DNA of 64,000 nt from a bacterium (GCA_005239955.1 SBAW01000011.1:6924-70923); one strand, 5' to 3'; positions 5,580 to 61,283 are shown, counted from the stretch's first letter. The notes: a model not told the origin generated them from the sequence alone. Numbers and translations are program-made.

Positions 5580-5858
5580 TAAGGCGCGCAAATGGTTGTC
5601 AGGGCGCCTGGTGTGATATCGGAGAGAGCCGCGTTTTGGATATGTTCACGTTAGTGGAGATATTCAAAAACTCTCTCCTCGAGCCGAGCACTAAATTTTG
5701 AAAGATTTTAGTGCTCGGTAAACGCGGGTTTCTCCCCGCTGTCGCACCCGGCGTTTTGATCGCCCTATAACCATTCTCTTATTCGCACGAATAGGGGAAT
5801 GGTCTTAAGAATCTAAAAATGTTCGATAGTTTTCGCGCACCATACCGTCTGCTATAGT

Positions 5859-6074
5859 ATGCTCATGTATACAGCGATATATAAAAAAGCTCGAAGCGGC
5901 TATGTTGCTTGGATCGAGGAAATTCCTGGCGTAAACACGCAAGGTGAGACTAAGCGAGAAGCGCAAGAGAATTTGCGTGATGCGTTGAAGGAATTTCTTG
6001 TCGCACGACGCGAAATTACTCGTCGCGCACAGCAGAGCGGTACTATTTCGCGGGGGCGTCTTGCGGTCGCCTAG
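5859..6074 (+). CDS. hicB: HicB-family antitoxin
   Basis: YTAIYKKARSGYVAWIEEIPGVNTQGETKREAQENLRDALKEFL matches the HicB/UPF0150 fold. Immediately followed by hicA. Confidence 0.7.
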   Translation: MLMYTAIYKKARSGYVAWIEEIPGVNTQGETKREAQENLRDALKEFLVARREITRRAQQSGTISRGRLAVA

Positions 6075-6082
6075 CTCGTCTC

Positions 6083-6277
6083 ATGAGACGTCGGGACCTT
6101 GAGCGCCATCTGCGCTTCAACGGCTGTCGGTTCTTTCGTGAAGGCGCAAAGCACAGCGTTTACTACAACCCAAAGAATGGTTTACTCACTACCGTGCCAC
6201 GCCATGCAGAACTTAAAACCTTCCTGACGCGAAAGATATGTAAAGATCTGGGAATTCCTCCTCCAACCAGAAGATAG
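6083..6277 (+). CDS. hicA: HicA-family mRNA interferase toxin
   Basis: LRFNGCRFFREGAKHSVYYNPKNGLLTTVPRHAELKTFLTRKICKDLGI matches the YcfA/HicA motif pattern. Confidence 0.7.
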   Translation: MRRRDLERHLRFNGCRFFREGAKHSVYYNPKNGLLTTVPRHAELKTFLTRKICKDLGIPPPTRR

Positions 6278-7291
6278 TCACTGGTCCTCCAATAGCTGCA
6301 GCGTTTTTTCGTTGCGAAGCACCGATTCAACATAAATAGTTACTCGTTCGCGGTCGGCGTCTTTAAACTGCGTGAGGATGTGGTCGGCTTCGCGTTTGAT
6401 GTCCTCCGCTGGGACTTCCACTTTTTCTTCCTCGGCAATTTTGTTGAGTACCAGTTGGAGTCGCGCACGTTTCTCCGCCCCAGAGCGCCACTCTTTACGC
6501 ATCTCTTCTTCGGTTTTCTTGACGTTTTTGAGGTAATCTTCAAGCGATGAGCCGAGGTGCTTGAGGTCTTCGCGAAGCTGCCCAATCATTTTCTCCAGTT
6601 CGCTTTCAATGAAAAGATTCGGGACTTCAAGCCTCGTTTTCTCAAGGATGGCATCAGTTATGGCCGCGCGACGTTTCTCTTTACTCTCTTGCGCGCGGCG
6701 CTCGGTCAGTCCCTTTTTCGTTGTTTCTTTGAGTTCCGCCAAAGTTTTGAAGTTGCCGAGTTGCATCGCAAATGCGTCATCAATTGGCGGCACTATTTCC
6801 TTGCCCTCGGCGTCTTTGCTCTTGAGTTGCCCCTGAAACTCAACCAAGAGTTTCTCAACATCGGCGTCAATAACCGCATCGGGCTCCTTTTTCTCATGTT
6901 TTTTTGCGATCGATTTGTAATCGGGGAGTTTAATCTCGGGCATGACCGCGGTTGTTGCCGTAAATCCGACCGGATTTCCTGGCGCGAGTTTGGTGAGGGT
7001 AACGGTGGGCCGCCCGACCGCTTCAATGCTCTCTTCTTTGACGGCTTCAAGATAGAGTTCGGGGAACGCGTGCTTCACCGCTTCTTCAAGAACGCCTACT
7101 TCGCCGATGCGCTCTAAGATCATATGCTCGGGCACATGGCCTTTCCGAAACCCCGGAAGCTCGGTTTTCTCCTGCAGTTCCTTCATCGCCTTCGCGCGAA
7201 AGGGGAGGAGAACACCAAAGGGAATTTCTCCTTTGATTTCTACTTCCGAGGCAGGGAGTTTTTTTATGGAAATATTCGTTATGCGAGCCAT
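6278..7291 (-). CDS. tig: trigger factor (short form)
   Basis: N-terminal ribosome-binding domain with GFRKGHVP signature, then PPIase-like and C-terminal arm regions. Confidence 0.75.
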   Translation of the reverse strand: MARITNISIKKLPASEVEIKGEIPFGVLLPFRAKAMKELQEKTELPGFRKGHVPEHMILERIGEVGVLEEAVKHAFPELYLEAVKEESIEAVGRPTVTLTKLAPGNPVGFTATTAVMPEIKLPDYKSIAKKHEKKEPDAVIDADVEKLLVEFQGQLKSKDAEGKEIVPPIDDAFAMQLGNFKTLAELKETTKKGLTERRAQESKEKRRAAITDAILEKTRLEVPNLFIESELEKMIGQLREDLKHLGSSLEDYLKNVKKTEEEMRKEWRSGAEKRARLQLVLNKIAEEEKVEVPAEDIKREADHILTQFKDADRERVTIYVESVLRNEKTLQLLEDQ

Positions 7292-26378: not shown

Positions 26379-27014
26379 ATGGAAATTATTTTTATCGTTG
26401 TCGTCCTCGTCCTCTCGGTCATCATTCACGAAGTCTCACACGGCTACGCGGCTGCGCTTCTTGGTGACCCCACTGCCCGCCTCGCGGGGCGCCTCACCCT
26501 TAACCCCATCCCACATATCGACCTGTTCGGATCAATCCTTCTTCCGGCACTCCTCCTTTTTACGAACTCCGGATTTCTCATTGGGTGGGCAAAACCGGTT
26601 CCCTATAACCCGCACAACCTAAGGTGGCCACACATGGGCGAGGCGGTCGTTGCCGCGGCAGGGCCTTTGGTTAATCTTGCGATCGCGCTTATCTCAGGGC
26701 TCCTTATTCGTGCGAGCGACAGCCTTGCGTTTATTACCCCGGGCACGATTGAGCTTCTTTCAACCATTGTCTCGATCAACATCATTCTCGCGCTCTTTAA
26801 CCTCGTCCCCATTCCACCCCTTGATGGTTCAAAAGTCCTTGCGGCAATCCTCCCGTACTCCCTCGCGAGGGTTTACAACAATTTCCTTCGGTTTGTTGAG
26901 GGGTACGGCTTTTTTGCCGCCATTGCGTTCGTTCTGCTTTTTCTCTACCTTTTTTCGGCTCCTTTTACCGCACTCATTCGTTCCATATTTACCCTCTTTA
27001 CGGGTCTACCTTAG
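26379..27014 (+). CDS. site-2 protease family (peptidase M50) membrane metalloprotease
   Basis: HEVSH zinc motif in the first TM helix, multiple TM segments, LDGS-type second motif (PPLDGSKVL). Confidence 0.75.
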   Translation: MEIIFIVVVLVLSVIIHEVSHGYAAALLGDPTARLAGRLTLNPIPHIDLFGSILLPALLLFTNSGFLIGWAKPVPYNPHNLRWPHMGEAVVAAAGPLVNLAIALISGLLIRASDSLAFITPGTIELLSTIVSINIILALFNLVPIPPLDGSKVLAAILPYSLARVYNNFLRFVEGYGFFAAIAFVLLFLYLFSAPFTALIRSIFTLFTGLP

Positions 27015-27142
27015 AAGTTGCGCCACAGAAGGCTCATATAGTAGAGTAAGCGAGCGCGAGAGCGCGTTTTTCGTTGAAGATTAAGAAGCCGAGAGGCGAC
27101 TATAATCTTCACGACCCTGTTAAATCCTTTCAAATTTGGCAA

Positions 27143-27412
27143 ATGTATCACTATACGTATGTGCTCTTGTCGAGGAAAGACGGCAAGTTCTATACGGGGT
27201 ATACCAAAGATTTGAAAGGACGATTTGAGGAACATCACCGTGGTGGAGTGAAGTCGACTAAAGATCGACGTCCACTCGAGCTTATATACTACGAGGCGTG
27301 TCGAGATCGCAACGACGCTCGACATCGCGAACAGTATTTGAAGACTCATCACGGCAAGATGTTCTTGCATAATCGTCTCAAATCGTATTTAACAGGGTCT
27401 AAGAGCTTCTAA
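27143..27412 (+). CDS. GIY-YIG nuclease superfamily protein
   Basis: YTYVLLSRKDGKFYTGYTKDLKGRFEEHHRGG…YYEAC…ARHREQYLK is the GIY-YIG core. The ORF could extend to 27074. Confidence 0.75.
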   Translation: MYHYTYVLLSRKDGKFYTGYTKDLKGRFEEHHRGGVKSTKDRRPLELIYYEACRDRNDARHREQYLKTHHGKMFLHNRLKSYLTGSKSF

Positions 27413-28336: not shown

Positions 28337-30484
28337 ATGGAGCGTGATTATCCTCTTGAACGAGTAAGGAATTTCGGCATTATCGCCCACATCGACGCGG
28401 GGAAGACGACGACGTCTGAGCGCGTTCTTTTCTATACCGGCATGACCCATAAGATCGGCGAGGTCCATGAAGGTGAGACGGTGACCGACTGGATGGAGCA
28501 GGAGCGCGAGCGCGGCATTACGATTACTGCCGCTGCCATTACCTGTTTTTGGACACCGACCTATGAAGCCAATAAGACCGACAAGAGCAAAAAATATCGC
28601 TTCAATATTATCGATACTCCCGGACACATCGACTTTACCGTTGAAGTAAAACGCTCACTTCGGGTGCTCGACGGGGCGGTGGTGGTGTTTGACGGCGTTG
28701 CGGGTGTTGAGCCACAGTCGGAAACGAACTGGCGCTACGCCGACGAAGCGCAGGTGCCACGCATCTGCTTCATCAACAAGCTTGACCGCACGGGCGCCTC
28801 ATTTGAAAAATCCTACGCCTCAATTCTTGACCGCCTTTCCAAATACGCGGTTCGCCTCCAGATTCCGATTGGCGCCGAAGACAAACTTGAAGGCGTTATT
28901 GATCTTTTGACGCGCAAAGCCTACAAATTTGAAGGAAACATGGGCCAAGAAGTAATACCCTACGACGTTCCGGAATCCCACAAAGCCGAAATGGAGAAAT
29001 ATCGTGCGGAACTTGTCGAAAAAATTGTCGAACACGACGACAAGATGATGAACGAGTACCTCGAGGGCAAGGAAGCGTCGGTTGAAGATCTCAAAAAAAT
29101 TCTTCGCAAAGCAGTTATCGCCAACAAGATTTTCCCGGTCATGACCGGCTCCGCGCTCAAAAACAAAGGCGTGCAGCTCGTTTTGGATGCGGTTGTCGAC
29201 TACCTGCCGAGCCCGCTTGATATTGCCGCAGTCAAAGGTACTGATCCCAAGACCGGTCTCCAGATTGAGCGCCATCCGTCGGATTCGGAACCTTTTGCGG
29301 CACTTGCCTTTAAACTCCAAGCGGATCCTTTTGTCGGACAGCTTACCTTCTTCCGTGTGTACTCCGGAACGGTAGAGGCGGGAAGCTATATCTACAACGC
29401 CACAACCGGAAGCAAAGAGCGTCTCGGCCGCATCGTGCGCCTTCAAGCTGATAAGCGCGAAGAAGTGAAGAAAGTATTTGCGGGAGAAATTGCTGCCGCG
29501 GTTGGCCTTAAGGACACCCGTACGTCGCACACCCTCTGCGATGAAAACAAACCGATTGTGCTCGAGCAGATTAAATTCCCCGAGCCGGTTATCTCAATGC
29601 GCATTGAGCCCAAGACCAAGGCCGACCAAGAGCGTATGGGCATGGCAATGAAAAAACTTGCTGACGAAGATCCCACTTTTAAAGTTTCAACGGATCAAGA
29701 AACTGCCGAGACCTTGATTGCGGGAATGGGTGAGCTCCACCTCGAGATCATTGTCGACCGTATGAAGCGTGAGTTTAACGTCGAGGCGAACGTCGGGAAA
29801 CCTCAAGTTGCCTACCGTGAGACCATTCAAGGTACTGCGGAGGCGGAAGGAAAGTACATCAAGCAAACCGGCGGGCGCGGCCAGTACGGCCATGTGCGCA
29901 TTCGCATGAAGCCGCTTGAACCAGTGGTAGAAGGAAAGAAAATTGCGAAGAATACGACGCGCGAAGACCACTTCGAATTCATCAACAGCATTAAAGGTGG
30001 CGTGGTCCCGCAGGAATTCATTCCCGCCGTTGAAAAAGGAGTGCGTGAAGCCATGGAGCGCGGCATTGTGGCGGGCTTTAAGATGGTCGATATTTCAATC
30101 GAACTTTACGACGGCTCCTACCACGACGTCGACTCCTCTGAAATCGCCTTTAAGATCGCAGCGTCAATGGCGTTTCAAGATGCTGCTAAAGCGTCGCGCC
30201 CCGTTCTCCTTGAGCCCATTATGAAAGTTGAGATTGTCACACCCGAAAAATTCATGGGGGATGTGAACGGCTCCATTAACGGGAAACGTGGCCTTATTGA
30301 AGGTATGGAAGAGCGCGGACTTGCCCGTGCCATTAAGGCGAAAGTTCCGCTCTCTGAAATGTTCGGCTACACGACGCAACTCCGGAGTATGACCGAGGGC
30401 CGAGCCTCCTTCACCATGGAATTTGACCACTACGAGGTTGTACCACCCAATGTGGCAAAAGATATTATTGAGTCTCGAAAGTAA
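28337..30484 (+). CDS. fusA: elongation factor G
   Basis: G-domain motifs [21 protein letters not shown]. Domains II-V. Confidence 0.95.
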
Positions 30485-30545
30485 TCAGGGTACCCTGTTG
30501 CCGAACGCCTGCCCCGTAGTAAGTCCGAAGGATTTTCCTACTGGG

Positions 30546-30578
30546 GTCGCGAAGGAAATCATTGAGTCTCGCAAATAA
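30546..30578. repeat. diverged duplicate of the fusA 3' coding end (encodes VAKEIIESRK* vs genuine [10 protein letters not shown])
   Basis: 33-nt segment 61 bp downstream of the fusA stop aligns to fusA 30452-30484 with about 8 mismatches, same reading frame and stop. Confidence 0.6.
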
Positions 30579-30735
30579 GAATATCCTCGCTGCCGGCACG
30601 GGAATATTCTTTTTGCCGTCGCTCGCTCGAAAAAGAACACGGGTGCTCTTTTCCCTCGCTTCACTAGGCAATAGTCTTTGACTTCAGGGAGTAAAGCGCT
30701 TCAATAGAGAAAGTGGGCAACCGGAGGAGGCGACT

Positions 30736-31254
30736 ATGTACGCCGCAAATCCGCTTTCTACAATTGTCGCGACCCTCAAACAGGTGTGGGACATCGCCCC
30801 CTCGCAGTGGGGGGAGACGCGGTTTGTTTCAGAGTTCAGCGGCAGGTGGGGTGAGTTCTACACGCTTGAAGCAAGTTGGTACCAGTATTTCGCAGACAAA
30901 AAGAAGGGCCGACTTGTCCTCGAATACTACCTCCCGTTCTGTCTCATGCCGCGGAGCGATTCCGCGAAGATTGCACGCTTCATGCGGGTCATGAACGAAG
31001 GGGTGCGTCGCTACAAACTCATGACACTGGCTTTTCGGACGGCGCGCCGGCAATTCTGTTTTTCGCGAGAGCGTGAGACTGAGGCGCCTTATGTGGAAGG
31101 GCCAAGCGAAAGCGTGAAAGAGTCGCTGTACCACGAGATATGCTTTACGCAGCTCTCTTACCCCTTGTGGACGAGATTTCTCCGGGAGGAAGAACTTGTT
31201 GCGGCCTTCGTCGATTTCGCCTATATGGCGGCGGCAAGCGACTACAATATGTGA
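30736..31254 (+). CDS. hypothetical protein (172 aa), GC-rich insert between fusA and tuf
   Basis: ORF preceded by GGAGGAGG RBS. About 58% GC. No family recognised. Confidence 0.45.
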   Translation: MYAANPLSTIVATLKQVWDIAPSQWGETRFVSEFSGRWGEFYTLEASWYQYFADKKKGRLVLEYYLPFCLMPRSDSAKIARFMRVMNEGVRRYKLMTLAFRTARRQFCFSRERETEAPYVEGPSESVKESLYHEICFTQLSYPLWTRFLREEELVAAFVDFAYMAAASDYNM

Positions 31255-31263
31255 AGGAAGAAC

Positions 31264-31290
31264 CCGGCCGCTGCCAAGCGGCCGGGTCTT
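31264..31290. terminator. GC hairpin ACCCGGCCGC-TGCCAA-GCGGCCGGGT
   Basis: Inverted repeat right after the 30736..31254 ORF. Confidence 0.5.
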
Positions 31291-31383
31291 CGCGTTTGTT
31301 GACACGTCGCGGAAAGAGTGTAGAACAATGATTAGAGAATTGCGCGCAGAAACAGTTTTTGAAAGGGAAGGAACCCCGACCAT

Positions 31384-31768
31384 GACAGCCACTACAGTGC
31401 CGTTCGGCTTCGACTACCTCGCCGCTTTCGACGCGGCGAAGGACGCTTTGCGGCGAACGCTCGGTGACCTCGGCCCGCGCACCAGAGCGATCCTCAATGC
31501 CGGGGCTGGCGACTACCAGATGGTTTTCGCTGCGGCGGCCGAGGAATCGCCAGACACCATGGTCGCTTCGATCGAGGCGACCAATGCTGACGAACGTGCC
31601 GAGTGGGCGTACTGGGGAGCTCGTTTTCTTCGCCCCGGCCCGCTTCGCGACCGACTCCTCACCGTCATCGCCAGGTCCCCCAGTCCGATGGTGAAATGGT
31701 GGGCATTGACGACGATCGACGGCATCTCCCCCGAGATTGCGGCCCTGTTCCAGAAAGAGGCCCGCTGA
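31384..31768 (+). CDS. hypothetical protein (128 aa), GC-rich insert between fusA and tuf
   Basis: ORF MTATTVPFGFDYLAAFDAAKDALRR…. Ala/Arg-rich, no family recognised. Confidence 0.4.
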
Positions 31769-31777
31769 AAGGAATGA

Positions 31778-31803
31778 CCCGGCCGCACCCTGCGGCCGGG
31801 TCA
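31778..31803. terminator. GC hairpin ACCCGGCCGC-ACCCT-GCGGCCGGGT (near-copy of the 31264 hairpin)
   Basis: Same 10-bp stem as the 31264 hairpin. Directly after the ORF stop. Confidence 0.5.
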
Positions 31804-32005
31804 TGATACTTTTCGCCTTCATTCATTGACTGTTTTTAACCTTCGCAGTAGGATAACTGCTACGCAGAAATGCGTCGTTTTTATTCTGGGATAGTCCTCC
31901 CGAATAAAAACCATCTGTGCGAGCATCGACAGGGGGTGCACGCAAAATTATTTATAACGATTATAAAAAACGGAGACGTCCCTGGTCCGCTCCGGAAGAA
32001 TTATT

Positions 32006-33196
32006 ATGGCAACATTTGATCGCAGTAAGCCCCACGTCAACGTCGGCACTATTGGTCACGTCGACCACGGCAAGACGACGCTCACGGCAGCAATTCTTAA
32101 TGTGCTTAACCTCGCTGGTCAGGAGGTGAAGCTCAAAAAAGTCGACGAGATCGACAGCGCACCGGAAGAGAAGGCACGCGGTATTACGATTGCGCTCTCG
32201 CACAACGAATACTCAACAGCAAATCGTCACTACGCACACATTGACGCACCGGGACATGCGGACTACATCAAAAACATGATCACCGGTGCCGCACAGATGG
32301 ACGGCGCAATCCTCGTGGTCGCGGCAACTGACGGCGTCATGCCCCAGACCCGCGAGCACATTCTCCTCGCCAAGCAAGTTGGCGTTCCAAAAGTCATCGT
32401 CTTCCTCAACAAGGTAGACATGGTTGACGACAAAGACCTCGTGGACCTCGTTGAAGAGGAAGTCCGCGAACTCCTCACGAAGCAAGGCTACGACGGCAAA
32501 GAAGCCCCGGTTATTCGCGGCTCAGGGCTTAAGGCCCTTGAAGCAAAAGACGTCAACGATGAGTGGGCGAAGAAAGTCCTCGAGCTTGCCAAAGCACTCG
32601 ATGAATACATTCCGCTTCCGCAGCGCGAAACCGACAAGCCCTTCATCATGCCAATTGAAGACATCTTCTCGATTGAAGGTCGTGGCACTGTTGTGACCGG
32701 CCGTATTGAGCGCGGCAAGGTGAAAGTCGGTGAGGAAGTTGAAATTGTTGGCCTGAAGCCTACCGCAAAGACCACCATCACCGGTATCGAAATGTTCAAC
32801 AAGCAGCTTGACGAAGGCCTCGCTGGCGACAACGCAGGCATCCTTCTTCGCGGTACCAAGAAAGAAGACGTCACCCGCGGCCAAGTTATCGCAAAACCTG
32901 GCTCCGTCACTCCTCACACTGATTTTGAGTCGGAAGTCTACATCCTCAACAAAGACGAAGGCGGCCGTCACACGCCGTTCTTCACCGGCTACAAGCCGCA
33001 ATTCTACGTCCGCACCACCGACGTGACCGGCGAAGTAACCCTTCCTACGGGAACCGAGATGGTTATGCCGGGCGATACGATTACCTTCAAGGTAAAGCTC
33101 GTTGCTCCGGTTGCACTTGAAGAGAAGCAGCGCTTCGCGATCCGCGAGGGCGGCAAGACCGTTGGCGCGGGTGTGGTTACGAAAATTGTGGCGTAG
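32006..33196 (+). CDS. tuf: elongation factor Tu
   Basis: [22 protein letters not shown] motifs. 396 aa. Confidence 0.97.
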
Positions 33197-54831: not shown

Positions 54832-55296
54832 ATGAGGCACATGCTTCGACTACTACTGCTTGTCGCCGTGGCGGTCTGCGCGTCGATGGGCCCGACCCCG
54901 GCCAATGCCCACAAGGAGTGGAACTGGATCGCCGAGGGCGACTGGCGTAACGAGGTGGAAAACAAAGGCTGCTGTACGCCGGACAACTGCCACGCTGGCG
55001 AGATTCTCGGTTGGCGGTGCGTTACCGAGAATGATGCCCGGGTCTGCTTCGTCACGATGCAGATGAAGGAAGGGCCGTTCGCGGGGAAGGATCCGGTCAG
55101 GATCCGCGTCGACGAAAGCGGCTTCCATAGGTATTCGGAAGACCGCGACCGGGTCTGCCACCTCGATCAGGCCATGGACGCGACCAAGTACTTCAGCCAC
55201 TATGGCACCTGCGTGTTCCGGATTCCGCGCATCGGCGAGAAACCGGATTCGCCACCGAATGGCCGCCCGATGCAAACCAAGTGGCACCACAACTAG
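54832..55296 (+). CDS. hypothetical secreted Cys-rich protein (154 aa), GC-rich islet
   Basis: Signal peptide MRHMLRLLLLVAVAVCASMGPTPANA, 8 Cys, about 62% GC. No family recognised. Confidence 0.45.
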   Translation: MRHMLRLLLLVAVAVCASMGPTPANAHKEWNWIAEGDWRNEVENKGCCTPDNCHAGEILGWRCVTENDARVCFVTMQMKEGPFAGKDPVRIRVDESGFHRYSEDRDRVCHLDQAMDATKYFSHYGTCVFRIPRIGEKPDSPPNGRPMQTKWHHN

Positions 55297-55406: not shown

Positions 55407-55437
55407 AAAAGAACTCCGCGAGCGGAGTTCTTTTGTT
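55407..55437. terminator. bidirectional terminator AAAAGAACTCCGC-GA-GCGGAGTTCTTTT
   Basis: 9-bp stem flanked by A- and T-runs. Confidence 0.65.
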
Positions 55438-55439
55438 TC

Positions 55440-55461
55440 TGGTGGAGATGGGCGGAATCGA
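55440..55461 (-). repeat. 22-nt exact direct copy of the tmRNA 3' end (TCGATTCCGCCCATCTCCACCA on the minus strand)
   Basis: Identical to 55616-55637. Lies 154 bp downstream (minus sense) of the genuine tmRNA terminus. Confidence 0.7.
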
Positions 55462-55615
55462 CATACCAAGTCGCTAATTCACTCCGCTCATAAGCGCTTG
55501 CCGGCCCGCCTCGCGGTCGCGGTGCGACCTCGCTGCGGCCGTTCGATTCCAACGAATGCGTCGCATTCTCCCATCGACAAATGAAAAAGCCCCCAGAAGG
55601 GAGCTTTTTCATTTG

Positions 55616-56010
55616 TGGTGGAGATGGGCGGAATCGAACCGCCGTTCAATGATGATTACCAGTGCGATCTTCAGTGTATAGATTGTCTTATATCTTTCAG
55701 CCTATCCTGTGAGAGACAATCAGAACCAGGATAGGCTAAAGTCCTTAGTCTCGACGCCGTGCGCGGACAACACGGTTCGCAGCCTCATGATATTACGCCC
55801 AGTCAAAGCTATGAGGCGTTGCCTTGATAGACGTCACTTAGGCCGTAGCGTAAGCGAAAGCAAAGCTGTTCCCCGAGAAATACGGAGAAACAAGTGATTT
55901 TGCCCGTGAAACTAGATTGTTTGCACGTGTGGTTTCCGGATTTTTACGAAGTTCCGGACTTCGACACTGCACGCAGGAGGTGCACGTCATTGTCTAGGCC
56001 GATCATCCCC
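55616..56010 (-). ncRNA. ssrA: tmRNA (SsrA), about 395 nt
   Basis: Minus strand: 5' GGGGAUG pairs with 3' CAUCUCC-A-CCA (G3·U70). Canonical T-arm GGCGG-UUCGAUU-CCGCC, encoded CCA. In-frame tag-like segment …GGG AAC AGC UUU GCU UUC GCU UAC GCU ACG GCC UAA (G N S F A F A Y A T A *) at about 55838-55873. smpB lies 120 bp away. Terminator hairpin AGCUCCC-UUCU-GGGGGCU + U-run follows the 3' end. Confidence 0.7.
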
Positions 56011-61186: not shown

Positions 61187-61206
61187 AGGGCGGGTAAAGT
61201 GTGAGT

Positions 61207-61279
61207 GCGCCCATAGCTCAATGGTAGAGCATCCGACTTATACTCGGACGGTTTGCAGGTTCGAGTCCTGCTGGGCGCA
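61207..61279 (+). tRNA. tRNA-Ile (anticodon UAU, decodes AUA)
   Basis: Cloverleaf: acceptor GCGCCCA/UGGGCGC, D-arm GCUC/GAGC, anticodon arm UCCGA-CUUAUAC-UCGGA, T-arm GCAGG-UUCGAGU-CCUGC, discriminator A. CCA not encoded. Confidence 0.8.
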
Positions 61280-61283
61280 CCCC

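Follow-up and report, generated by a model that had tools for sequence, protein, structure and literature searches.

How does a conserved gene come to be followed by a second copy of its own last codons? This question is raised by the region between fusA, which encodes elongation factor G (EF-G), and tuf, which encodes elongation factor Tu (EF-Tu), in a 64-kb bacterial window (GCA_005239955.1, SBAW01000011.1:6924-70923; 'the window' denotes this whole stretch). The identity of the fusA-derived protein places the organism in the Patescibacteria (Paceibacteria/Minisyncoccia-like); its best match, at 83% identity, is fusA of a Minisyncoccia genome, and it also matches 160 other Patescibacteria loci. 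Members of this group have tiny genomes with few recognisable mobile elements and a highly variable gene content, and the way in which they gain genes is poorly understood. The 160 related loci, drawn from genomes and metagenomes, served as the comparison set (labels such as L006 and L083 denote related loci or contigs), and all sequences used are metagenome assemblies. Our observations point to repeated, recombinase-free insertion of foreign DNA behind conserved genes. They also provide a searchable signature of gene gain, namely a codon-aware duplicate of the last codons of a conserved gene lying past its real stop, which marks small insertions behind fusA, rpsG and the gene for transfer-messenger RNA (tmRNA), with no recombinase found in them.

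The fusA gene was called at 28337-30484 on the plus strand (715 amino acids, aa) and tuf at 32006-33196 on the same strand, leaving a gap of 1,521 nt. An earlier reading of the window (the original prediction) had placed 1.5 kb with two open reading frames (ORFs) of 172 and 128 aa between these genes, together with a 33-nt copy of the fusA end that begins 61 bp past the stop and encodes VAKEIIESRK and a stop codon. The coordinates and gene calls were correct, and alignment bore out the duplicate. The present functional fusA terminus of ten codons and a stop (copy 1) occupies 30452-30484, and the second copy (copy 2; VAKEIIESRK and a stop, in the +1 frame relative to fusA) occupies 30546-30578. 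The two copies match at 26 of 33 positions and are separated by a spacer of 61 nt (30485-30545), the sole DNA enclosed by the repeats, while the best 33-mer match in 300 shuffled gaps did not exceed 21/33. All seven mismatches (G/C, A/G, A/G, T/A, T/C, A/C and G/A) fall at third codon positions and result in a single residue change, D to E; under random substitutions, one amino-acid change or fewer has a probability of P = 0.0008. Silent divergence of this kind implies that both copies were once working gene ends in different lineages, and the comparison of the copies supports the view that both acted as coding sequence during their divergence.

The arrangement is not confined to the window. 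Codon-aware copies of the fusA end were found 3' of fusA in about 12 independent lineages, the window included, with the DNA between the copies ranging from 37 nt to 3.2 kb. In six of these lineages, this window among them, a hairpin is the only content between the copies, which lie 37-81 nt apart; the copy starts 62 nt past the fusA stop in L006, 71 nt in L042, 37 nt in L049 and 89 nt in L146, and L036 carries two tandem units of 114 nt. The seven repeat pairs of this type differ at 7-11 nt and by 0-2 amino acids (P ≤ 0.0008 for each), and one of them contains a switch between the serine codons AGC and TCT. The repeats span 10, 11 or 14 codons in the hairpin cases and 23-30 codons in those without a hairpin, or 26 to ~90 nt overall. 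Larger spacings were seen in L059 (186 nt past the stop, with a repeat of at least 23 codons), L120 (1,530 nt, with unknown ORFs in the insert) and L011 (3,190 nt, with a PG-binding protein in the insert). The clearest example of gene cargo inside the repeats is L152, where the copy lies 601 nt past the stop and a HigB/ParE-type toxin gene with a small upstream partner ORF sits exactly between two direct fusA-end repeats of ~90 nt (5612-6300).

Three further lineages, L124, L126 and L020, show a complex order of sense, antisense and sense sequence, with copies 119-164 nt past the fusA stop. Here EF-G has a long acidic tail (..RGVKDIEEEA), and fusA is followed by a terminator, an antisense copy of the last ~8 codons, 60-100 nt of other DNA and a sense copy (5600-5900 in L124, where the terminator is duplicated too). 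Either of the two sense copies could form base pairs with the antisense copy.

When 2,578 ORFs in 1.6 Mb were scanned blind, 14 copies of a C-terminal decapeptide and stop were returned, of which 11 belong to fusA, one to rpsG and two lie elsewhere. In the rpsG case (L084, 1990-2650), the 3' end of the gene (..KAFAHFAW*) recurs 583 nt downstream with third-position differences, and the repeats flank a gene for a 164-aa membrane protein inserted between rpsG and fusA. The tmRNA locus of the window shows the same geometry at an RNA gene (55408-55637): the tmRNA 3' end and its terminator (55637-55584, minus strand) recur 176 nt downstream at 55461-55408, with 22-24 nt identical. Beside the duplicate lies an orphan ORF of 154 aa (54832-55296, plus strand; GC content at third codon positions, GC3, of 0.81) with a signal-peptide-like N-terminus and no family match in library searches. 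The parallel that the original prediction drew with this locus, a 3'-end duplicate next to a GC-rich orphan, is thus real. Its further proposal of a shared insertion mechanism or element family stands in part: the signature does recur at fusA, rpsG and tmRNA, but its presence at the latter two means that a single dedicated element family is not required. By eye, the spacer between the tmRNA 3' copies contains a partial inverted copy of the T-arm. The tmRNA itself encodes a long tag of 28 residues, ANNLVSRAKSLVSPYFSGNSFAFAYATA.

Which of the two fusA ends is the newcomer? The fusA reading frame runs into copy 1, which is an EF-G end normal for the clade. In codon usage, copy 1 (GC3 of 0.30) departs from the rest of fusA (0.59), whereas copy 2 (0.60) agrees with the host, and copy 2 matches the native fusA end of the relative L010 at 29 of 33 positions. 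The atypical codons of the window gene are confined to the last ten. In L006, copy 2 has a GC3 of 0.8 against 0.73 for the host, and copy 1 together with ~20 upstream codons a GC3 of ~0.3; copy 2 matches the native ends of relatives at 26-30 of 33 positions and copy 1 at 21-24. The last 20-30 codons of fusA in L006 have 3-5 GC-ending codons per 10, compared with 6-10 upstream, and show lower identity to relatives. A strong terminator lies 3' of copy 2 in L006, and in the window a terminator-like hairpin with a U-run (30571-30616; fold energy of -16 kcal/mol, z = -2) takes in the stop codon of copy 2. From the host-like codon usage of copy 2 and the position of its stop within this hairpin, we infer that copy 2 is probably the displaced original end of fusA and copy 1 its incoming replacement.

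The original prediction had read the duplicate as the scar of an element that integrated into the 3' end of fusA and supplied a replacement terminus, with the two ORFs as its cargo. The copy does have the signature of such a replacement, and target-derived direct repeats of the attL/attR type do flank the 61-nt spacer. The remainder of the claim did not survive: the repeats enclose the hairpin spacer only, the two-gene cassette lies outside the pair, and the L006 unit has no cargo gene at all. In addition, none of the inserts examined (those of L011, L120 and L152, ORF1 and ORF2 of the window, and the ~12 repeat-flanked inserts) yielded an integrase or other recombinase, in a search made at the level of the loci that did not survey the rest of the genome from which the window comes.

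We therefore considered how foreign DNA might enter without an enzyme of its own. The explanation that we favour, to which we give a little less than an even chance, is that recombination with an anchor in the conserved gene brought in foreign DNA and displaced the original end. The 3' side of fusA would then be an insertion hot spot with several layers, which arose by recombination with DNA of related lineages and with no self-encoded recombinase. In the first layer, the incoming patch would have comprised the fusA terminus of a related lineage (30452-30484, perhaps with more upstream codons), its stop, and 61 nt ending in the hairpin. Its left end would have been joined by homologous recombination within the highly conserved body of fusA, and its right end just upstream of the last ten codons of the resident gene. 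EF-G would have remained intact with a new end, and the old end (30546-78) and its terminator would have moved 94 nt downstream, where they are no longer translated. Repeats that survive would be short and silently diverged, since recombination between long or identical ones would remove the insert. A unit of this kind, when in place, could then move into naive relatives by ordinary double crossover, in which fusA would provide the long arm and the displaced copy the short arm on the right.

In transformable bacteria (Acinetobacter, Pseudomonas stutzeri and Streptococcus pneumoniae), homology-facilitated illegitimate recombination is an established process, reportedly through work of de Vries and Wackernagel and of Prudhomme and colleagues, both of 2002. 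It uses one long homologous anchor, joins the second end at little or no homology, can leave small duplications or deletions at the border and needs no element-encoded recombinase. The lack of a recombinase, inserts of 37 nt to 3.2 kb, the varied repeat length, the involvement of three genes and the foreign-looking tract in L006 all fit this process. Unlike the present case, it is known from laboratory crosses and not as a recurrent natural signature at gene ends, and it predicts neither a junction hairpin nor tandem units; the pathway is one that we infer here. At the second junction the evidence is mixed: repeat length and insert size vary, and there are cases at rpsG and tmRNA, yet six cases share one hairpin junction.

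This junction hairpin (GCCCCGUAG...CUACUGGGG; 30511-30546, plus strand) has a fold energy of -25 kcal/mol in the window, and its final G is the first base of copy 2. Seven instances were found in the six lineages (the window, L006, L036 twice, L042, L049 and L146). All of them share the outer stem GCCCCG/UGGGGU without change, and the inner stems, though different from one lineage to the next, still pair. Pairing also reaches 2-3 pairs into the first codons of copy 2. The motif occurs once in the 64-kb window, and no junction hairpin without an adjacent copy was found in 1.5 Mb of related DNA. The hairpin ends in ..CCTACTGGG, and a junction of that end to GTGGCAAAAG would mark a circular or excised form. 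A search of 30380-30740 against Rfam gave no match at E ≤ 10, and the whole window at gathering thresholds gave the tmRNA and one tRNA only.

Several simple origins of the hairpin and its spacer were rejected or lacked support. A derivation from tRNA found no basis in the fusA-tuf gaps of 60 loci, none of which contains a tRNA gene, and a role as a DNA uptake sequence does not agree with its 9-mers, which occur only once in 64 kb. Local alignments of the spacer to upstream fusA were no better than those of shuffled sequence, and so the spacer is not decayed fusA. Scans gave no support for an origin in viruses or plasmids, returning chance coding matches, ordinary terminators and one tRNA. A further hairpin candidate at 26468-26490 (minus strand) is a chance match within an M50-protease-like ORF.

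The hairpin is also a difficulty for recombination anchored in fusA. It lies exactly at the copy 2 junction in six lineages whose fusA proteins differ by 20-30%, which implies either one founding event followed by spread or a mechanism directed by the hairpin. If joins were random and illegitimate, one structure should not recur; a shared hairpin junction is not a prediction of plain illegitimate joining, and no simple scar model accounts for it. In L036 the tandem hairpins share ~96% identity and the copies beside them only 70%, a pattern that suggests, from the sequences compared, that the hairpin is specifically conserved or itself mobile. The shared junction argues for an extra ingredient, be it a founding event and subsequent spread or a hairpin-directed enzyme acting in trans. 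Other points weigh on the same side. The natural competence of the organism is an assumption, and efficient recombination through a 33-nt arm of only 75-80% identity is doubtful unless close relatives are involved. No donor sequence was found, the polarity of the copies is ambiguous in L042 and L146, and in the window it is based on ten codons and a modest terminator.

The main rival takes the hairpin as its starting point. The units would be miniature, non-autonomous, site-specific elements of ~70-115 nt, in each of which a replacement fusA terminus is followed by a variable spacer and, at the end, a conserved hairpin. Their insertion just 5' of the last 10-14 codons of fusA would be the work of a recombinase whose gene lies elsewhere (for instance a tyrosine integrase, an integron-like enzyme or an HUH enzyme that recognises hairpins). 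Tandem accumulation, like the accretion of cis-mobilizable and integrative conjugative elements (CIMEs and ICEs) at fda or the arrays of staphylococcal cassette chromosomes (SCC) at rlmH, would be expected of them, and L036 has two tandem units of near-identical hairpins and different copies. Six lineages conserve the hairpin precisely at the junction (..UGGG|GU..), the motif is restricted to fusA in 1.6 Mb, and the L006 unit carries no other cargo. Hairpin-dependent enzymes are present in the gene pool, since L106 has an IS200-like Y1 transposase between palindromes, but the sequence of those palindromes is unrelated. In archaea, the homologous gene, aEF-2, is a target of casposons at its 3' end (PMC4046053). 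Against such elements, the ~12 repeat-flanked inserts have no recombinase within or adjoining them, and no autonomous version was seen among the 160 loci. The repeat length is variable (10, 11 or 14 codons, and 23-30 in cases lacking the hairpin), repeat-flanked inserts without a hairpin exist, and there are the rpsG and tmRNA cases. Moreover, the atypical tract of ~20 codons 5' of copy 1 in L006 is expected of a homologous crossover and not of precise insertion. On this balance we regard the reading as on the unlikely side. The more specific proposal, that the hairpin units are an undescribed class of miniature mobile element (~70-115 nt) homing to the last 10-14 EF-G codons in Patescibacteria, carrying silently recoded codons, stacking in tandem and moved either by a hairpin-recognising enzyme in trans or by homology-driven spread that carries the arms along, appears quite unlikely to us.

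It could also be asked whether the arrangement is not a trace of insertion but a working part of the transcript. The hairpin and copy 2 might form a functional RNA in the 3' untranslated region of fusA (a stabiliser of the mRNA, a site of processing or a signal that lets ribosomes pass over the first stop and terminate on copy 2), with selection keeping copy 2 coding. Copy 2 does retain 8-10 of its 10 residues in every lineage, the outer stem is invariant with inner stems that vary yet pair, and the hairpin extends 2-3 pairs into the first codons of copy 2. However, copy 2 lies in frame 0, +1 or +2 depending on the lineage and has no start codon, the spacers of L006 and L036 hold in-frame stops upstream of it, and there are no matched take-off and landing codons; translation of copy 2 by readthrough or frameshifting was rejected on these grounds. 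No Rfam family matched, EF-G terminated on copy 2 would be the same as the normal protein, or almost so, with no evident benefit, and the element is present in only 6 of ~160 lineages, all of which makes this account improbable. Least probable of all, and largely refuted, is an origin in a tandem duplication that arose locally through replication slippage or template switching and then drifted, in an artefact of assembly, or in a similarity due to chance. Direct repeats near strong hairpins are typical of slippage, the long near-identical repeats of L059 and L152 could be recent local duplications, and every sequence here was assembled from metagenomes. An untranslated copy would, however, drift at all codon positions, whereas the differences in the seven hairpin-type pairs are silent, and the 26/33 match of the window copies exceeds the chance best. 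The arrangement of the window is found in two independent Logan assemblies (100% and 99.98% identity; exact look-ups with the fusA and tuf proteins gave no additional contigs), and the pattern recurs across unrelated studies and assemblers.

Several known systems resemble the fusA locus in part. The nearest parallels are integrative elements that enter the 3' ends of protein genes and supply a replacement end, known from icd (phage 21 and e14), fda (ICESt1, ICESt3 and CIMEs) and rlmH (SCCmec). As in our case, the gene is kept intact by the terminus that the element supplies, and the displaced end persists as a direct repeat with mainly silent differences; tandem accretion occurs, and elements without an integrase can be mobilised in trans. 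These systems, however, have a dedicated integrase and kilobases of element between the repeats, whereas here the repeats of the hairpin cases enclose 37-81 nt, no integrase was found and the ORFs lie outside. Tycheposon islands of Prochlorococcus are reportedly degenerate islands linked to tRNA or tmRNA genes, with arrays of partial target repeats, that were traced to integrase-bearing elements. Partial tmRNA or tRNA 3'-end repeats beside small integrase-less cargo, in a streamlined genome with few classical mobile elements, fit the tmRNA locus of the window. Such islands descend from integrase-bearing elements, though, while here the targets include protein genes and the divergence is codon-aware.

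An ORF with a hairpin behind it, conserved at the ends of its stem and free in its loop, is an order that recalls the cassettes of integrons, and ORF2 appears as a further unit of ORF and hairpin. Unlike attC sites, the hairpins behind the two ORFs (H1 and H2) are perfect 10-bp GC stems without R and L boxes or extrahelical bases, each ORF has its own upstream signals, and the insertion point of ORF2 lies 7 nt beyond H1 and not inside a hairpin. Neither intI nor attI was seen in the fusA-tuf gap, the whole window not having been scanned for intI.

Casposons in Thaumarchaeota target the 3'-distal region of aEF-2 (PMC4046053). As in our case, they are directed to the 3' terminus of the gene for the homologous translocase (EF-2/EF-G), or of tRNA genes, and preserve gene integrity (PMC4046053). 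In contrast to the present inserts, they are 8-20 kb long, carry genes for Cas1 and PolB, possess terminal inverted repeats and create target duplications of ~14-15 bp whose copies are identical at the outset (PMC4046053); the window gap holds only two orphan ORFs, and its repeats are 33 nt long with seven third-position differences. A diversity-generating retroelement was rejected, as the differences between the copies lie at third positions and are not adenine-specific, and the gap ORFs showed no reverse transcriptase domain. Nor do the window hairpins behave as the palindromes of REP/RAYT systems (repetitive extragenic palindromes and their associated transposases), the junction hairpin occurring once and the CCCGGCCGC hairpin of H1 and H2 twice in 64 kb. 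Four traits set the present case apart, namely that no recombinase was found, that some inserts are extremely small, that the junction hairpin is conserved and that the host belongs to the Patescibacteria.

The DNA beyond copy 2 holds the remaining layers of the proposed hot spot. ORF1 (30736-31254, plus strand, 172 aa) is preceded by a region (30676-30735) with a -35-like box, TTGACT, at 30678-30683 and a ribosome-binding site, GGAGGAG. Its stop codon, hairpin H1 (stem 31262-31287) and the motif CTTCGCG make up 31252-31294, and the ORF2 module follows at 31295-31812, with a -35-like TTGACA at 31299-31304, ORF2 itself (31382-31768, plus strand, 128 aa, GC3 of 0.76) and hairpin H2 (31777-31801). 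Each ORF has its own -35-like box and ribosome-binding site, and in both the annotated frame was the best of the six for coding. The GC content of the DNA between fusA and tuf, put at about 58% by the original prediction, was measured at 56.7% over 30452-31810 against 51.5% for the window, with ORF1 at 55% and only ORF2, at 64%, clearly atypical.

Both ORFs had been described as unrecognisable, and this largely held. Neither has a match in Pfam, PHROGs, PADLOC or NCBIfam, and word-indexed searches with the two proteins returned self matches only, as did a search with ORF2 among 5.8 billion protein clusters. An exhaustive HMMER search among ~15 billion proteins returned a single homolog of ORF1, labelled P0003 here, with 45% identity over the full length. 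The gene for P0003 sits between fusA and tuf on L083, a contig of a sister lineage that shares the upstream region, the hairpin and the tuf leader with the window; the ORF1 upstream region aligns with the intergenic DNA of L083, even though the flanking genes have nearly saturated synonymous sites. Between the window and L083, the nonsynonymous divergence (dN) of ORF1 is 0.52 with synonymous divergence (dS) saturated, compared with a dS of ~1.1 and a dN of 0.012 for fusA. The ortholog in the same slot and these values indicate that ORF1 is a real, fast-evolving gene that has probably been resident for long and is not a recent arrival. L083 lacks 190 nt that hold the spacer and the copy, and it lacks the entire ORF2 module.

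The hairpins that follow the ORFs are nearly the same, as had been noted earlier. H1 is ACCCGGCCGC-N6-GCGGCCGGGT, and H2 is the N5 version; their 10-bp stems are identical, no such match was found in 100 shuffles, and they fold at -31 and -33 kcal/mol (z-scores of -5.6 and -6.8, respectively). H2 resembles an intrinsic terminator, with 14 pairs followed by GATACTTTTC, while H1 has the same stem and a weak tail, CTTCGCGTTTGTT. The stem of H1 is identical to that of the L083 hairpin at 20 of 20 positions and the loop is entirely different; conservation of the stem across a dS above 1, with the loop free to change, suggests more than a bare thermodynamic constraint. In L012, a Kaiserbacteria relative, a CCCGGCCGC...GCGGCCGGG hairpin of the H1/H2 type lies just 5' of fusA (5907-5928), and the stem may be a type of terminator shared in the group.

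Relative to L083, the ORF2 module appears as a single alignment gap that begins 7 nt past H1 and ends with H2. Its flanks, TGAAGGAAGA-hairpin in the context of H1 and TGAAAGGAATG-hairpin in that of H2, form a direct repeat, and so ORF2 is bounded by a repeat of the stop codon and hairpin of the preceding gene; the left copy is that at 31252-31294. As far as this alignment indicates, ORF2 is a later insertion than ORF1. In terms of recombination anchored in conserved DNA, the second layer would be ORF1, which settled earlier in the fusA-tuf slot and has upstream signals and a hairpin terminator of its own, and the third layer the GC-rich ORF2, which would have been acquired later, 7 nt past the ORF1 hairpin. 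An AlphaFold model of ORF2 is an all-alpha bundle of eight helices with a predicted local distance difference test score (pLDDT) of 71.5, and a search with this predicted fold gave no PDB match; the ORF1 model (pLDDT of 42) is too poor for use. By analogy with the cargo seen in relatives, our guess is that ORF1 and ORF2 encode small accessory or conflict-related proteins.

That cargo is varied. The original prediction had assumed that fusA and tuf are normally adjacent, which is not so in this clade: tuf follows fusA in 91 of the 160 loci, with a gap of 104-4,829 nt (median of 865 nt) that is 300 nt or less in only 13, and a further 25 loci have at least 3 kb after fusA without tuf. Toxin-antitoxin modules (MNT/HepT, YafQ/RelB, ParE and HigB), an ORF6N protein, DUF5663 proteins and PG-binding proteins occupy the gap in relatives. 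In L106 (5724-6474), the gene for the IS200-like Y1 transposase (a borderline Pfam match, 23 bits) lies right after fusA with a 30-nt palindrome, TCCACCAGTCAACCTGCCAGGTTGACTGGTGGA, on both sides, an arrangement that has the appearance of a REP/RAYT-like unit. The wide range of gap lengths and the diversity of cargo show that the fusA-tuf junction serves as a general slot for accessory genes in the clade.

Among the occupants of this slot are toxin-antitoxin pairs, orphan genes and a REP/RAYT-like unit. Should the mechanism be confirmed, it would account for the harmless entry of foreign DNA beside essential, highly expressed genes, and the signature would offer a handle for spotting recent transfers among metagenome-assembled genomes. 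The junction hairpin, should it turn out to be an active element, would represent a new kind of very small mobile DNA.

The right flank of the variable slot (31813-32005, plus strand) consists of a promoter-like site for tuf (TTGACT-17-TAGGAT at 31826-31854) and a structured leader. The flank is 86% identical to L083 over 181 nt. The leader (31826-32005) contains a run of 61 nt identical to L083 and is conserved beyond the level of silent sites, the fusA dS between the two being ~1.1. Three hairpins were predicted in it, one of them with two compensatory pairs, and the leader may be an uncharacterised cis-regulatory RNA upstream of EF-Tu.

Two other features of the window are recorded here. 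A protein of 112 aa with a GIY-YIG nuclease domain (27074-27412, plus strand; Pfam E = 1.4e-15) is encoded directly 5' of rpsL and heads the rpsL-rpsG-fusA cluster. A gene for tRNA-Ile with the anticodon TAT, which is uncommon among bacteria, lies at 61206-61282 (plus strand).

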